From an uncultured Pseudomonadota bacterium (GTDB lineage: Bacteria > UBA10199 > JADFYH01): DNA of 45,535 bases. Positions 35,577 through 40,334 of the stretch are shown here, piece by piece (within the stretch, counting starts at the first letter, position 1; every line of letters starts with the position of its first letter). The translations under genes were made by a program, and so were the position numbers. The notes beneath the pieces are model-generated. The model was not told the DNA's origin. It saw nothing but the letters and a program-made list of their open reading frames with translations, and did not search any database. The stretch lies in contig CAYYEM010000003.1 in assembly GCA_964470915.1 (NCBI GenBank), positions 1-45,535 on the forward strand. Reading direction: 5' to 3'.

Positions 35577-37004
35577 TTATTCTTCACCTTCATCATCTTC
35601 GCCTGAAATTTCATATTTTTTCAGAAGATTACGGAGATGTTTACGGTCGATTTGGGCTTCGCGCGAAGCTTTTGAAACATTAAAATTATTACGACGTAAA
35701 ATTTCTTCGAGGTAGTCTTTCTCGAAACTTTCAACAATGCGTTGTTTGGCTTCTTTGAAGGGCAGGGAAGAGTCCACGACTACTCGTTCTGTGGGTTCCA
35801 CGTTATGTTCAATTTCCTGAAAAACATAATTTAAGTCAGAAGAGCGAATTGTATGACCATCTACCATAGAGACAGCTCGCTCGATTACATTCGATAATTC
35901 TCGTACGTTTCCAGGCCATTGATAACGTTGCATCATTTTAAGAGCGTCATCTTCTACTCGAGAAACTCTTAAGGAGCCGTCTGGCATACGATTAAATTTT
36001 CCATCTGAAAGAAATTTTTCAAGAATCAGAGGGATGTCTTCGGGTCTTTCACGAAGAGCAGGTAGATTAATTTTTACGACTGAAAGACGATAATATAAAT
36101 CTTGTCGAAAACGCCCTTCTTCAACTTCATCTTTAAGAGAACGATTTGTAGCGCAAACAACTCGTACATCTAAACGAATAGGCGAATTAGAACCTACCCG
36201 ACGCACTTCTCTTTGTTCTAGAGCACGAAGGAGTTTAGGTTGAAGATCCAAAGTGAGTTCCCCAATTTCATCAAGAAAAATGGTTCCACCATTTGCAGCT
36301 TCAAAAGCACCTTTTCGGTCTTTAAGAGCTCCTGTAAAAGAACCCTTTTCATGACCAAATAATTCCGATTCAATCAAGTTAGGAGCGACAGCTGAGCAAT
36401 CAAAAACTACAAATGGTTTATCTTTTCGAAGCGAATGTTGATGAATCGCACGGGCTACCAATTCTTTTCCGGTTCCCGTTTCTCCTTCAATAATGACAGT
36501 GGCTAAAGATGGAGCGATTTTTTCGCAAATACCAAAAATTTGTCTCATTTTGCGAGATTTACCAACCATCTCCCCAAAGGCTGTTTTGGTCGAAGGTTCA
36601 ATTTGAACTTTTTCATCAAAAGCAACGAATTCAATTTGGGTGTTGCCTAGAGAAATCACATCGCCTGGTGAGAGATAAGCCTCTTTTACTTTAAGATTAT
36701 TAATAAAAGTGCCATTGGTAGAAGCAAGATCTTTGAGTAAAAAACTATCGGAGGCTTGTTCAATACTGAGATGGTATCGAGAAACAGTGCCATCTGTTAA
36801 AGCAAGATCATTATCTTCTTTTTTGCCGATACGGATTGCTTTTCGGCCGAGGTCAATTTTTTTATCTTTATCGGGTCCTTGTATTACCTTGAGAAGACAC
36901 TTTCGAAATGAAATGACATCTCGCATTTCTTCAACAGGCAATAGCTGTGTCGAGTCTTTTGGATCTTTATGATATTCAGTTTCGGTGTTTTTAGTGTCTT
37001 GCAT
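35577..37004 (-). CDS. Sigma-54-dependent transcriptional activator with N-terminal FHA domain (FHA - AAA+ - Fis HTH)
   Basis: 475 aa. FHA: [43 protein letters not shown]+: [15 protein letters not shown], the GAFTGA-type loop [15 protein letters not shown], and [13 protein letters not shown]-terminal [26 protein letters not shown]. Confidence 0.9.
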
Positions 37005-37030
37005 GTGTTGTCTGATTGCCTTTGCTTATA

Positions 37031-39559
37031 TTAATTATTGAAAGAACCGCTCCAGCGTTGCCCATCTAGTTCAAGATTTACAGAATGTGTTTTTCCTCGT
37101 CGAACCCCTTTGATAATCACAGGTGTTTTTTGGCCAATCGAGCGACCATCGATACTAACATTTGCTCCTGGAGGACTGGATGTGATTTTAACAGATCCAA
37201 ATTCACCATCTCCTCCAAGAGGAGAGACAGAGCCTGATAGTTTTTTGCCAGAAGATTTATCTTCTGTTTTCTTTTTGTTATCTTCCGCGGCTTGTTTACG
37301 GGCGTCTTCTTCAGCTTTCTTTTTCGCTTCTTCTGCTTTCTTCGCTTCCGCAGCTTTGTTTGATTGGTCTAATTTTTTGGCTTCTTCTTCTTTTTTCCTT
37401 TGTTCTTCAAGTAATTTTTTTTGCTCTTCAGCGCTTAATTGTCCTGAGCTTTTTTTCTGATCTTCAATCAATTTTTTCTGGGCTTCGATTTTTTTTCGTT
37501 CTTCCTCGGCTTTGAGTTTGTCTTGTTGTTTCTTTTTTTCTTCTTCTTCCTTTTTCTTGATTTCTTCTTCACTCAACAATTTTTGTGTCATTTGAAGAGG
37601 CTTTTCAGAGGTAATATTGAAGGTGTTGGTAACATCTCGATAACGATCTTTAGAAAGTCGAATGGTAAAGCTTTTGCCTACTTCAAGTTTAGGAACTTTA
37701 TTGGGGGTGACGAGACCCGTATCTTGGTTGTTGACGAATATTTTAGCTCCAGGAGGAGTGCTTTGAACCTCGACACTGCCGTAACGGATTTCTTCGAGCT
37801 TTTTATCATATTTAATAGGTTCTATTGAATAAACAGTAATGCGCTCTTCTACTGGCAGATAATCTGGTTTTTCAAGTTTAAGAGTATAGGTTTTGTTGAG
37901 TTCGAGATCTTGAATTTGAGTAGGAGTAGGGCTGCTTATTTCTTGTCCATCCAAATAGACTTTAGCACCAGCAGGATGACTGGTGACTGAGATACTTCCA
38001 GCAGGAATAGCTTCAAGGTTTGCATCTACATTGAGTGCTTGTGGAGAAATCAAAGTGACTAAGCGAGTCCATTCTCTGAAACGATCCTTTTTAAGAGTAA
38101 TTTTTTGGCTAAAATTTAATTCAACGTTTTGAAGATTGGCAGGTGTGACAAGGAGAGTGTCTTTATCATTTAAAAATATTTTTGCGCCTGTTGGTACAGA
38201 ATTTACAGAGATGGTTCCAATTTTTTCACCTTGAATTGGGGCTTGGAAAAACTTTTTGTATCCGAAGTAGCCACCCACTCCTAAGATTGCAACCACGATG
38301 AGAGCATAAATCCAGTTCCAGGATTTAGGAGCTTTCATTTGGCCTGTGACGACTTCGCCAGGTGTCGCTCCTGGCATTGCAATTTTGATTTTACTGTTAC
38401 TCGTGTTGGGCTCAACGTAAGCAGCTTGTGTGCCCGTATGTTCAGAGGTAGCTTCTCCAGTCAAAAAACTATCCATGAAAGTTTTGGTGGGCTGAGCGGC
38501 TTGGTCGATGCGAGTTTTTTCATTGTCATTTCGATGCACGATGCTTTGTTGTTGTTCGCTTTCGAGCAGAAAAGAACGTGTTTGAGCGTCGATGTCAGAG
38601 TCATTCTTTCTTTTGCTTTTTTTATTTTGAATTTCATTTGCAAACAAGCGACGCATGAAATTTGCCAGCTTGCGAGGAGAAAAATCTAAATAAGTAGAAT
38701 ATAAGTACTTAGTGAGCTCCAACTGCATGTCGCCTGCATTTTCAAAACGATCTTTCGAAGTATACGCGAGAGCTTTTGCCAGAATTTTTTTCATGGCAGG
38801 TGACATGCTGTCTGGAAAAGTATTTTCGGTGACACGTGTAGAACGAATTTTTTTGAGTACTTCAAATTGAGTTTCGCCCGTGAAAAGTTTTTGTCCTGTA
38901 AGCAGCTCATAGAGCATGAGTCCTGCAGAAAAGATGTCTGTTTTGTAATCGACAGGTTTGCCGAGAGCCTGTTCGGGACTCATGTAGGTGATTTTGCCTT
39001 TAAGAATCCCCGCCATGGTGTGCGACATGTTCATGGCAGCTTTGGCGATACCAAAATCCACTACTTTCGCTTCTCCTTCGAAGCTAATTAAAATATTTTG
39101 TGGAGAAATATCACGGTGAACAATATTTAGCGGATTACCATCTAAATCACGTTTTGAGTGGGCGTAATCGAGCCCTTTGCAAACTTCACTGATAATATAA
39201 ACTGCTATATCTTCGGGAAAAGGTTCGCCTAGCTCTTTGCATCGATTCATGAGTTCGCGTAAATTGATGCCATCCACGAACTCCATAGAAATAAAATAGT
39301 CGTCTCCCACTTTCCCGAGATCAAACACTTGCACAATGTTTGTATGTGAGAGCAAGACGGAAAGTTTAGCTTCATCAATGAGCATGGTGATGAATTCTTT
39401 GTCGCTTGAGCAGTGGGGAAGAATTCTTTTGATTGCGAGAAGTTTTTCAAAACCATCCACACCAAAAGTTTTGGCTTTATAAATTTCAGCCATGCCTCCT
39501 GTGGCTAGCTTTTCAATCAAGAAATATTTTCCAAAAGGTTTGGGTTGAAAATCATTCAT
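37031..39559 (-). CDS. Hanks-type Ser/Thr protein kinase with TM and periplasmic PEGA domains
   Basis: 842 aa. Kinase motifs GGMAEIYKAK, LLAIKRIL, HRDISPQNILI, DFGIAK and YMSPEQ. TM WIYALIVVAILGVGGYFGY. At least four PEGA-like repeats (SVNSVPTGAKIFLND.., VTSHPAGAKVYLDGQ.., VQSTPPGAKIFVNNQ.., ITSSPPGANVSIDGR..). A K/E-rich coiled coil lies between them. Confidence 0.9.
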   Translation of the reverse strand: MNDFQPKPFGKYFLIEKLATGGMAEIYKAKTFGVDGFEKLLAIKRILPHCSSDKEFITMLIDEAKLSVLLSHTNIVQVFDLGKVGDDYFISMEFVDGINLRELMNRCKELGEPFPEDIAVYIISEVCKGLDYAHSKRDLDGNPLNIVHRDISPQNILISFEGEAKVVDFGIAKAAMNMSHTMAGILKGKITYMSPEQALGKPVDYKTDIFSAGLMLYELLTGQKLFTGETQFEVLKKIRSTRVTENTFPDSMSPAMKKILAKALAYTSKDRFENAGDMQLELTKYLYSTYLDFSPRKLANFMRRLFANEIQNKKSKRKNDSDIDAQTRSFLLESEQQQSIVHRNDNEKTRIDQAAQPTKTFMDSFLTGEATSEHTGTQAAYVEPNTSNSKIKIAMPGATPGEVVTGQMKAPKSWNWIYALIVVAILGVGGYFGYKKFFQAPIQGEKIGTISVNSVPTGAKIFLNDKDTLLVTPANLQNVELNFSQKITLKKDRFREWTRLVTLISPQALNVDANLEAIPAGSISVTSHPAGAKVYLDGQEISSPTPTQIQDLELNKTYTLKLEKPDYLPVEERITVYSIEPIKYDKKLEEIRYGSVEVQSTPPGAKIFVNNQDTGLVTPNKVPKLEVGKSFTIRLSKDRYRDVTNTFNITSEKPLQMTQKLLSEEEIKKKEEEEKKKQQDKLKAEEERKKIEAQKKLIEDQKKSSGQLSAEEQKKLLEEQRKKEEEAKKLDQSNKAAEAKKAEEAKKKAEEDARKQAAEDNKKKTEDKSSGKKLSGSVSPLGGDGEFGSVKITSSPPGANVSIDGRSIGQKTPVIIKGVRRGKTHSVNLELDGQRWSGSFNN

Positions 39560-39995: not shown

Positions 39996-40010
39996 GACAA
40001 GACCGAATCC

Positions 40011-40334
40011 TTATTTTTTCATTTTTTTACTTTTGTTGGTTTTTTTTGTTTTATTTTGCTTATTTGTTTTAGCTTTTTTACTTGTTGCTTGTTTTTTTGG
40101 TTTTACATTTTCTTTTGCTTGTACTTTTTTCTTTGGAGTTGGAGGAGGTGCTTGTTTGTCTTCTTTTTCAAGGAAAGCGAGAGAAAAAGAAGGTGTGTTA
40201 TAAAAAAGTGGTGTAGGAATTAAATCTACTTTTCCCTCACAAAAACTACATTTCTGGAGAGGAGTGTCGGTAATTTTTTGGAAAATCTGAAACTCTTTAC
40301 CACACTTTTTACATCGATAGCGTGAAATTGGCAT
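40011..40334 (-). CDS. FmdB-family zinc-ribbon protein with Lys-rich tail
   Basis: 107 aa. N-terminus MPISRYRCKKCGKEF....LQKCSFCEGKV (the CxxC...CxxC zinc ribbon typical of the FmdB/CxxC_CxxC_SSSS family), followed by a K-rich tail. Confidence 0.75.
   Translation of the reverse strand: MPISRYRCKKCGKEFQIFQKITDTPLQKCSFCEGKVDLIPTPLFYNTPSFSLAFLEKEDKQAPPPTPKKKVQAKENVKPKKQATSKKAKTNKQNKTKKTNKSKKMKK

Follow-up and report, generated by a model that had tools for sequence, protein, structure and literature searches.

How a secretin-less, flagellum-like type III secretion system (T3SS) comes to be switched on, and whether a Ser/Thr kinase encoded beside it takes part, is the question raised by a 45,535-nucleotide stretch of contig CAYYEM010000003.1 from an uncultured bacterium of the UBA10199 lineage (the whole stretch is called the window here). 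Next to the T3SS cluster, four minus-strand open reading frames (ORFs; 40334..35577) encode a zinc-ribbon protein, a small anchored protein, a Hanks-type kinase and a sigma-54 enhancer-binding protein (EBP) that carries an FHA domain. On balance, and from comparison of sequences, we favor the view that this putative operon supplies the input to a transcription cascade of three tiers that serves the secretin-less, flagellum-like T3SS of an uncultured 'Deltaproteobacteria'/UBA10199-type lineage. The PEGA domains would sense a signal from the envelope or from contact and thereby activate the kinase, which would phosphorylate Thr19 of the EBP (T-Q-L-L, a phosphothreonine [pThr] ligand with Leu at pT+3) or itself; the FHA domain would bind that pThr in a GarA/OdhI-like manner, controlling assembly of the AAA+ ring. 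The EBP would bind a dyad through its Fis-type helix-turn-helix (HTH) and, with sigma-54 RNA polymerase, would switch on a FliA-like sigma gene and probably also the downstream sctL-N-O-P-Q-R-S-T genes. The FliA-like sigma factor would then transcribe genes preceded by GCAACTT-N15-CCGATAA, including the substrate/chaperone cassette next to the EBP gene. The kinase may in addition act on the canonical FHA domains of two conserved T3SS membrane proteins and so control assembly as well.

A Conserved Sigma-54 Promoter inside the T3SS Cluster

A scan of the window for GG-N10-GC gave two joint top sites, both intergenic, one of which precedes the gene for the FliA-like sigma factor within the T3SS cluster (Table 1). 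Orthologous FliA-like loci for comparison were taken from NCBI assemblies and metagenomes, and an equivalent site (TGGCAY-N6-TGCA or TGGC-N8-TTGCA) stands 5′ of the gene in 55 of the 58 that were informative. TGGC and TGC are invariant in the 44 unique FliA-like promoter sequences, with variable spacer and flanks, and the background of such sites is 0.014 per 360 nt over 1.88 Mb of strand sequence, the sites themselves included. The comparative evidence for a sigma-54 promoter at this position is strong, and the predicted target, the FliA-like gene, lies 12.7 kb away. Over 942 kb of relatives' loci (designated by L numbers below), high-scoring sigma-54 sites cluster at T3SS promoters. In L061 (3799..3960) and L062 (5362..5520) no sigma-54 site is present 5′ of the FliA-like gene; because the dyad described below and TGGCACCAAATCTGCA are now found just 3′ of the gene, the promoter position appears to have shifted in these two loci.

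The sequence-only reading that preceded this analysis had wired the EBP to the T3SS through the substrate genes next to it and had looked to GG-N10-GC promoters as the sign of such wiring. The wiring itself gains support from the conserved promoter at 22003..22018 and its dyad, both within the cluster; its proposed point of entry does not, as the window scan detected no GG-N10-GC site in the gap ahead of the adjacent cassette (31675..31860), and the predicted target is the distant sigma gene. A sigma-54 promoter directly on the window's own cassette was thus rejected, but such an arrangement does hold in L010, L011, L013, and L017, where near-perfect TGGCAY-N5-TTGCW promoters precede cassette genes, 65–75 nt 5′ of the start codons in L011, L013, and L017 and at the contig end in L010. 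A further sigma-54-like site (40329..40344), facing a 539-aa ORF (hyp539), overlaps the start codon of the zinc-ribbon gene and was set aside as chance or uncertain: there is no strict match in relatives, hyp539 lacks a homologue in L002/L003, and the dyad lies on the wrong side.

An Enhancer-like Dyad Shared by the Sigma Gene and the Kinase/EBP Operon

A k-mer search for enhancers on 10 promoters had yielded nothing significant after multiple testing; an inverted-repeat search of the 44 unique FliA-like upstream regions revealed an 18 bp dyad, TGGGG-N8-CCCCA. It is present with at most one mismatch in 34 of the 44 regions (versus 3 of 880 shuffles) and with at most two mismatches in 43 of them (versus 38 of 880), and nearly all copies lie between −100 and −185, with one at −210. 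Exact dyads number 21 in the 942 kb, and 17 of these sit 100–180 nt 5′ of a sigma-54-like site. The four cassette sigma-54 promoters (L011, L013, and L017) have the same dyad 102–127 nt upstream.

The dyad also marks the kinase/EBP operon itself. The two intergenic dyads of the window, one serving as a candidate enhancer (upstream activating sequence, UAS) ahead of the sigma-54 promoter and the other lying 5′ of the zinc-ribbon gene, share the variant arms TGAGG..CACCA. The copy at 40492..40509 is kept as TGGTGACT-N6-CCTCA in L002 and L003 with a variable center, and in the GC-richer loci L006, L010, L012, L013, L016, and L017 a dyad of the TGGGG-N8-CCCCA type is found between yggT and the kinase gene, 5′ of the operon. 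Because an operator common to a regulator's own operon and to promoters dependent on an EBP usually marks the site where that regulator binds, the dyad is a candidate binding site of the EBP, which would contact it through the Fis-type HTH. The EBP is favored as the binder because no DNA-binding domain other than its HTH_8 was recognized among the operon's products, with the Lys-rich zinc-ribbon protein as a less likely alternative.

The Kinase/EBP Operon

Since the four ORFs are separated, in gene order, by gaps of 15, 31, and 26 nt, their expression as a single operon is plausible. The minus-strand run was present as it had been read from the sequence, and the Pfam families agree for all of its members except the 134-aa protein, which has no significant Pfam match and belongs to no known family. 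The GC content across the operon (0.38–0.40) is the same as that of the flanks. The zinc-ribbon gene is found at the equivalent position in L002, L003, L007, L008, L011, and L034, and orthologs of the 134-aa protein in L002–L004 and L007. Judged by direct reading of hydrophobic stretches only, the 134-aa protein is probably tail-anchored and the PEGA region of the kinase probably periplasmic.

The kinase comprises a kinase domain, one hydrophobic segment (WNWIYALIVVAILGVGGYFGY), three PEGA stretches, a Lys/Glu-rich linker, and a fourth PEGA stretch. Direct reading identified the catalytic Lys (LAIKRI), HRDISPQN, DFG, and SPE, and the protein is predicted from these motifs to be catalytically intact, and to be transmembrane. 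The ortholog in L017 has five PEGA stretches. The extracytoplasmic PEGA domain is also common to the kinase and the SctD-like FHA protein of the T3SS cluster (16243..18411).

The EBP matches the Pfam families FHA (PF00498; 63.7 bits, cut-off 20.7), Sigma54_activat (PF00158; 236.6 bits, cut-off 20.2), and AAA_lid_14, and at its C terminus HTH_8 (29.5 bits, cut-off 22). Its Walker A and B motifs read GETGTGKE and FLDEIGE, and the sigma-54 contact loop, GSFTGA in the window protein, is invariant as G[SA]FTGA among 120 homologues. Pfam and direct reading alike bear out the FHA-AAA+-HTH architecture with GSFTGA that had been assigned to it, and the EBP is, from its domain content, a complete sigma-54 activator co-operonic with the kinase. 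NCBIfam EBP families match the protein, but every named equivalog scores far below its cut-off; by this measure, and with an FHA domain rather than a receiver or FleQ domain at its N terminus, it is not an ortholog of FleQ/FlrA/FlgR or of HrpR/S.

Divergent from the operon lies hyp539 (40661..42280), which has no family match and no homologue in L002 or L003; an unrelated 690-aa ORF occupies its position in L003.

Table 1. Positions of the Operon, the T3SS Cluster, and the Associated Regulatory Elements in the Window
Feature	Position	Strand	Content and support
PP2C phosphatase	5090..5854	+	PP2C_2 67.2 bits; between PmbA and M23 peptidase genes, ~30 kb from the kinase
T3SS cluster, non-flagellar type (predicted)	11652..31674		SctV, SctJ, SctL, SctN, SctO, SctP-like, SctQ, SctR, SctT; also FliG-, FliM-, and FliO-like
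Tail-anchored protein with two FHA domains	13794..14870	-	FHA 139.8 bits, 2 stretches; canonical GR...SRxH...NG; in L028, L030-L033
FHA-transmembrane-PEGA-TPR protein, 722 aa, possibly SctD-like	16243..18411	+	Canonical GR/SRxH/NGT; in L028, L030-L033
Sigma-28-type promoter (candidate)	18798..18826	+	2 mismatches; 5′ of hyp183; same place in L028, L030, L031, L032, L033
Sigma-28-type promoter (candidate)	20907..20935	+	2 mismatches; 5′ of hyp167; same place in L028, L030, L032, L033
Candidate enhancer (UAS) dyad	21882..21899	n/a	TGAGGACTTTGGTCACCA; 121 nt 5′ of the sigma-54 -24 element
Sigma-54 promoter (predicted)	22003..22018	+	TGGCATGTTTAGTGCA (TGGCAY-N6-TGCA); 57 nt 5′ of the FliA-like sigma gene
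FliA/WhiG-like sigma factor gene	22075..22872	+	Inside the T3SS cluster; Sigma70_r2, r4
Sigma-28-type promoter (candidate)	31759..31787	+	GCAACTT-N15-CCGATAA, exact motif; gap ahead of the cassette
Substrate/chaperone cassette (predicted)	31861..35574	+	hyp342, TPR chaperone 216 aa, hyp390, TPR chaperone 198 aa
Sigma-54 enhancer-binding protein, 475 aa	35577..37004	-	Tail with Thr19, FHA, AAA+ with GSFTGA, Fis-type HTH
Hanks-type Ser/Thr kinase, 842 aa	37031..39559	-	Pkinase 132.9 bits; PEGA 142.1 bits, 4 stretches
Small protein, 134 aa	39591..39995	-	Hydrophobic C terminus ILLVITGILLLVLIYLIIKIFI (read directly)
FmdB-type zinc-ribbon protein, 107 aa	40011..40334	-	Zn_ribbon_8 41.7 bits (cut-off 34.4); Lys-rich tail; operon gene 1
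Candidate operator dyad	40492..40509	n/a	TGAGGGCTAGAGTCACCA; 5′ of the zinc-ribbon gene of the kinase/EBP operon

The Secretion Cluster and Its Embedded Sigma Gene

SctV passes its NCBIfam equivalog cut-off (807 versus 692 bits) and FlhA fails (713 versus 772), and the inner-membrane ring protein is an SctJ-type lipoprotein; by these assignments the cluster is a T3SS of the non-flagellar type. SctS was detected in the clusters of relatives. Among the T3SS cluster ORFs of the window and of five relatives (the L028–L033 set) there is no SctU/FlhB (Bac_export_2) and no secretin family, and flagellar rod, hook, and flagellin families are absent from the cluster. Across lineages the cluster keeps its gene order and remains intact, even where the FliA-like protein is only 58% identical. 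The sigma factor itself scores 132.9 bits against TIGR02479 (FliA_WhiG), under the cut-off of 189.6, and its gene keeps its position in L028–L033. The 161-aa protein encoded right after it (22905..23390) has a faint match to T3SS_basalb_I (SctI; E 0.2), and its position would suit an anti-sigma factor too.

The two FHA proteins of the cluster recur in the relatives (Table 1) and are conserved T3SS cluster members. In analogy to PpkA and Fha1, it is reasonable to regard both as possible targets of the kinase at the assembly level. The sequence-only reading had joined the kinase, the PP2C phosphatase (5090..5854), and the EBP, together with the three other FHA domains (13794..14870 and 16243..18411), into a complete writer/eraser/reader set. 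Pfam confirms the existence of the phosphatase and of the three domains, and the kinase and the FHA proteins are indeed linked to the T3SS; the completeness of the set does not gain the same support. The PP2C gene lies ~30 kb away from the kinase in housekeeping surroundings (PmbA, M23 peptidase, SecA, and ArgJ), the parts of the T3SS clusters obtained from relatives do not contain it, and a link to the kinase or the T3SS is unsupported.

Toxin-antitoxin modules (PIN, ParE, AbiEii, and Phd) are repeatedly inserted directly 3′ of sctT (L031 19465..20117, L032 19309..20846, L033 19185..19852, and L034 18316..20224), where the window has the substrate cassette. Near the start of the window, a tRNA-Val (anticodon TAC) is encoded on the minus strand (189..261). 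Because the 16-mer AGGGATTGAACCTGCG occurs twice (17..32 and 200..215), a second, truncated tRNA copy is suggested at the window edge (1..40).

The Substrate/Chaperone Cassette and Sigma-28-Type Promoters

The cassette is convergent with the EBP gene, their stop codons being 2 nt apart. Its reading as chaperones and substrates is supported because the 216-aa TPR protein matches the class II T3SS chaperones PcrH (2e-8), AcrH, SycD, and IpgC along the full length of these chaperones. The exact motif GCAACTT-N15-CCGATAA ahead of the cassette is likewise exact in L002–L006, L008, L019, L030, and L034; the L007 copy deviates at one position, and the spacers vary. In relatives the motif also precedes large genes of no known function. 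Over all loci, 42 unique sites have at most one mismatch, versus 0–1 in shuffles. CCGATAA is the hallmark −10 element of sigma-28 promoters, and on the strength of this resemblance the FliA-like sigma factor is the obvious candidate for the reader of the motif. A CCGATAA ahead of the M23 peptidase gene (5990) was rejected as a promoter of this type, since there is no fitting −35 element.

The products hyp183 (18877..19428), hyp342 (31861..32889), and hyp390 (33706..34878) resemble one another as paralogues would: a Gly-rich GGSLRG/S stretch is common to all three, a poly-Pro run to two of them, and their C termini are similar (..AIRNFRS, ..VIQSFRA, and ..IIRNLRQ). They are candidate secreted paralogues. 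Their C termini are reminiscent of those of the needle proteins PrgI/MxiH, a resemblance unsupported by Pfam or the PDB, searches of which gave no match.

The FHA Domain and a Candidate Phospho-switch

Residue conservation in the EBP was computed over 120 family representatives. The nearest solved structures to its FHA domain are those of Rv1747, FhaA, GarA, and OdhI (mycobacterial kinase-partner FHA proteins, including GarA and OdhI), and Gly60, Ser75, Arg76, His78, Ser95, Thr96, Asn97, and Gly98, which include the SRxH and STNG motifs, are invariant. Thr19, in the tail ahead of the domain, is also invariant, within [DE]-x-x-x-T-[QE]-[LI]-[LI]. Many FHA domains prefer a hydrophobic residue at pT+3. 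The Thr19 motif fits such a ligand and is a candidate partner for the FHA domain of the EBP itself. A switch of the GarA/OdhI kind is suggested: the kinase would phosphorylate Thr19, and the FHA domain would bind pThr19 in cis or between protomers. GarA and OdhI of Actinobacteria (PDB 2kfu and 2kb3) likewise have a short tail with a conserved Thr ahead of the FHA domain, and in both a Hanks kinase phosphorylates the tail Thr and the protein's own FHA domain binds the tail. Unlike the EBP of the window, GarA and OdhI regulate enzymes rather than transcription, retain the canonical Arg, and have a longer tail.

Gene Neighborhood in Relatives

The EBP sequence is present on a Logan metagenome contig, and EBP relatives with 66–93% identity come from metagenome-assembled genomes labeled Deltaproteobacteria, Pseudomonadota, or 'bacterium', one of them named UBA10199. 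Mapping of all window proteins onto the relatives' loci by tblastn placed the kinase gene directly upstream of the EBP gene in every orthologous locus that reaches that far, and, immediately downstream in 18 of 18, the cassette TPR198 - X - TPR216 in convergent orientation. T3SS machinery follows the cassette in L002–L008, L011, L013, and L019; L015, L017, and L018 have none within 10 kb, and in JAHFST010000003.1 it lies ~33 kb from the EBP gene on the same contig. In JACOUP010000008.1 machinery and EBP/cassette are adjacent, with toxin-antitoxin insertions between them. Conservation of the operon next to the T3SS in related genomes had been proposed as a check; the operon keeps its place beside the cassette throughout, and the machinery is not always close by. 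Because the cassette stays with the EBP gene where the machinery is remote, the conserved partner of the kinase/EBP operon is the chaperone/substrate cassette rather than the machine.

More distant FHA-EBP relatives (42–50% identity; Myxococcota and Bradymonadaceae) have no T3SS genes nearby, and the association of the EBP with the T3SS is for this reason specific to the present lineage. In L034 (286..4793) the genes prkA - DUF444 - spoVR lie just upstream of yggS-proC-yggT and the kinase/EBP operon; L017 (67..4668) has the same three-ORF arrangement, of which the PrkA ORF alone was scanned with Pfam.

Alternative Explanations

Several observations weigh against the proposed cascade. The phosphate-binding Arg that is canonical in FHA domains is replaced by Lys61 in 119 of the 120 EBP family members, and because of this replacement pThr gating of the EBP, the phosphorylation switch of the sequence-only reading, is no more than plausible. 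Thr19 lies ~17 residues ahead of the start of the FHA match, possibly too short a distance for intramolecular binding. The dyad shows no co-variation between HTH and operator, the recognition helix of the EBP being nearly invariant, and it occurs with at most one mismatch within 150 nt 5′ of 5 of the 42 sigma-28-type promoters, in three cases directly 5′ of the −35 element; it is therefore not exclusive to sigma-54 promoters. That the EBP binds the dyad is something we infer, since the invariant helix is uninformative and dyads are also found at sigma-28-type promoters. The −35 element GCAACTT is unlike the TAAA of known sigma-28 promoters, and the classical consensus TAAA-N15-GCCGATAA is not enriched (10 matches versus 5.6 expected). 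A search for rpoN, which reached the window only, did not locate the gene there. Finally, yggS-proC-yggT, found upstream of the operon in 13 loci, is conserved as strongly as the cassette, so that synteny alone is not specific. Exact dyads at L058 1833, L063 1740, and L034 15950 start ~40 nt 5′ of the −35 element, and end ~20 nt from it, at sigma-28-type promoters of hyp183 orthologues and the cassette, and the dyad-binding protein may also act at some promoters of this type.

The FHA data could be read without any phosphorylation of the EBP. The EBP would still control the sigma-54 promoters of the T3SS, with its FHA-like domain as a protein-interaction module, similar to the cytoplasmic domain of YscD, rather than a pThr reader; a T3SS chaperone or a secreted anti-activator would regulate it (compare HrpV/HrpG-HrpS and chaperone co-activators), and the main targets of the kinase would be the machine's canonical FHA proteins. 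This is unlikely in our estimate, though it accounts for the Lys substitution, for the T, A, or V found at the same position in distant paralogues, and for the Pfam scores of the N-terminal domain, on which Yop-YscD_cpl exceeds FHA (73.7 versus 63.7 bits). It also agrees with the GR/SRxH/NG motifs retained by the 2xFHA and FHA-PEGA-TPR proteins and with the TPR class II-type chaperone genes that adjoin the EBP gene. Against it stand the invariance of SRxH and STNG, the second basic residue (Lys or Arg) that always follows Lys61, and the co-operonic kinase in all orthologs; moreover, the invariant T-[QE]-[LI]-[LI] fits the pT+3 rule, and the best solved relatives of the domain are true pThr-binding FHA domains.

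Somewhat less probable still is that the kinase/EBP operon regulates the envelope or the cell cycle in general and merely resides in a conserved yggS-proC-yggT neighborhood, with another EBP or regulator serving the T3SS sigma-54 promoters and the dyad. Besides the 13 loci with yggS-proC-yggT upstream, which in L017 and L034 apparently runs in the same direction as the operon with short gaps, the second EBP encoded close to the operon in L004 would be in keeping with it. Genomes of the Deltaproteobacteria type usually encode many EBPs, and the 42–50% FHA-EBP relatives of Myxococcota manage without nearby T3SS genes. Yet the operon itself carries the dyad, which co-varies in the window lineage with that of the FliA-like gene; the chaperone cassette keeps its place beside the EBP gene where the machinery has moved and carries sigma-54 promoters beside the EBP gene in four lineages; and the high-scoring sigma-54 sites of the 942 kb are concentrated at T3SS promoters. 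Very improbable, to our judgment, is that the cluster is a degenerate flagellar system whose sigma-54-to-FliA wiring is inherited flagellar control unrelated to secretion into targets. FliG-, FliM-, FliO-, FliH-, and FliK-like Pfam matches and the FliA-like sigma factor recall a flagellum, but the outcome of the SctV and FlhA cut-offs, the SctJ-type lipoprotein, the lack of rod, hook, and flagellin families in the cluster, the PcrH/SycD/IpgC-like chaperone, and the intact synteny down to 58% FliA-like identity all speak for a secretion system. A cascade in which the operon provides the input to the T3SS remains the reading that we favor.

Comparison with Known Systems

In the Hrp T3SS of plant pathogens, the HrpR/HrpS-sigma-54-HrpL cascade leads from an EBP to an alternative sigma gene and from there to T3SS and substrate genes, and the system proposed here would similarly act through a sigma-54 EBP on an alternative sigma gene and then on substrates. 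HrpR/S, which have no sensory domain, are under the control of HrpV/HrpG, HrpL belongs to the extracytoplasmic function (ECF) sigma factors, and we know of no kinase input to HrpR/S-HrpL; the sigma factor here is FliA-like rather than ECF, and the activator has an FHA domain and a co-operonic kinase. Flagellar hierarchies proceed from FleQ/FlrA/FlgR/FlbD through sigma-54 to FliA. The present locus resembles them in the predicted order of sigma-54, sigma-28, and late substrates, in the CCGATAA-type −10 element, and in the FliG/FliM/FliO-like machine parts. It differs in SctV, SctJ, and a class II chaperone, in an FHA domain instead of a receiver/FleQ domain, and in the −35 element (GCAACTT, not TAAA).

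Sigma-54 activators with the FHA-AAA+-HTH arrangement are known from Myxococcus xanthus (Jelsbak, Givskov and Kaiser 2005, as cited in PMC12288465). They share with the window EBP the FHA-AAA+ sigma-54-HTH architecture and a lineage rich in Hanks kinases, and kinase input has been proposed there. In contrast to these activators of fruiting-body development, the EBP of the window has a co-operonic PEGA kinase and is tied by cis elements to a T3SS regulon; its Myxococcota relatives (42–50% identity) are found in loci without T3SS genes. The threonine phosphorylation pathway of the Pseudomonas aeruginosa H1 type VI secretion system (PpkA/PppA/Fha1) is post-translational (PMC10482370). It too combines a transmembrane Hanks kinase with FHA proteins attached to a secretion machine, but in the present locus FHA forms part of a transcription activator, the cluster does not include the PP2C gene, and the secretion system is of another type.

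The Myxococcus xanthus T3SS* (MXAN_2434-2464) is needle-less and has been proposed to stand between flagellum and injectisome (PMC10433427, PMC12075869). The window cluster is similar in that it encodes a core export apparatus with its ATPase and a PcrH-like chaperone but no secretin, LcrH-like chaperones being a feature of both. It is unlike T3SS* in its candidate secreted paralogues (hyp183, hyp342, and hyp390), and SctU was not found among its ORFs. The T3SS* reviews PMC10433427, PMC12075869, and PMC10849154 describe no regulator or regulatory input, and a literature search found no paper joining UBA10199 and type III secretion. Each element of the locus has a known counterpart; the combination, comprising a PEGA kinase with an FHA-EBP, a dyad on its own operon and on the T3SS sigma promoter, and sigma-28-type substrate promoters, appears to be new.

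Significance

Both the origin of non-flagellar T3SSs from flagella and the switching-on of secretin-less 'deltaproteobacterial' systems are poorly understood. The locus supplies a base-level regulatory map that places a candidate operator dyad and a sigma-54 promoter, the sigma factor gene embedded in the cluster, and the sigma-28-type promoters of the substrates, together with a specific phospho-switch hypothesis centered on Thr19 and the FHA residues Lys61 and Ser75. Although the organisms are uncultured, purified proteins and heterologous reporters would allow all of it to be tested. More tentatively, and with less than even confidence, we propose that a self-contained circuit of four tiers might operate lineage-wide, leading from a PEGA Hanks kinase through a sigma-54 activator gated by FHA and a sigma-28-like factor embedded in the T3SS to the secreted substrates. 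The flagellar sigma-54/sigma-28 hierarchy would then have survived the transition from flagellum to secretion, its two-component input having been replaced by eukaryote-like Thr phosphorylation, of which canonical FHA proteins in the basal body would be further targets. If true, the locus would show clearly how a Hanks kinase provides the input to a sigma-54 activator whose target promoters are identified, as has long been proposed for the FHA-EBPs of Myxococcus.

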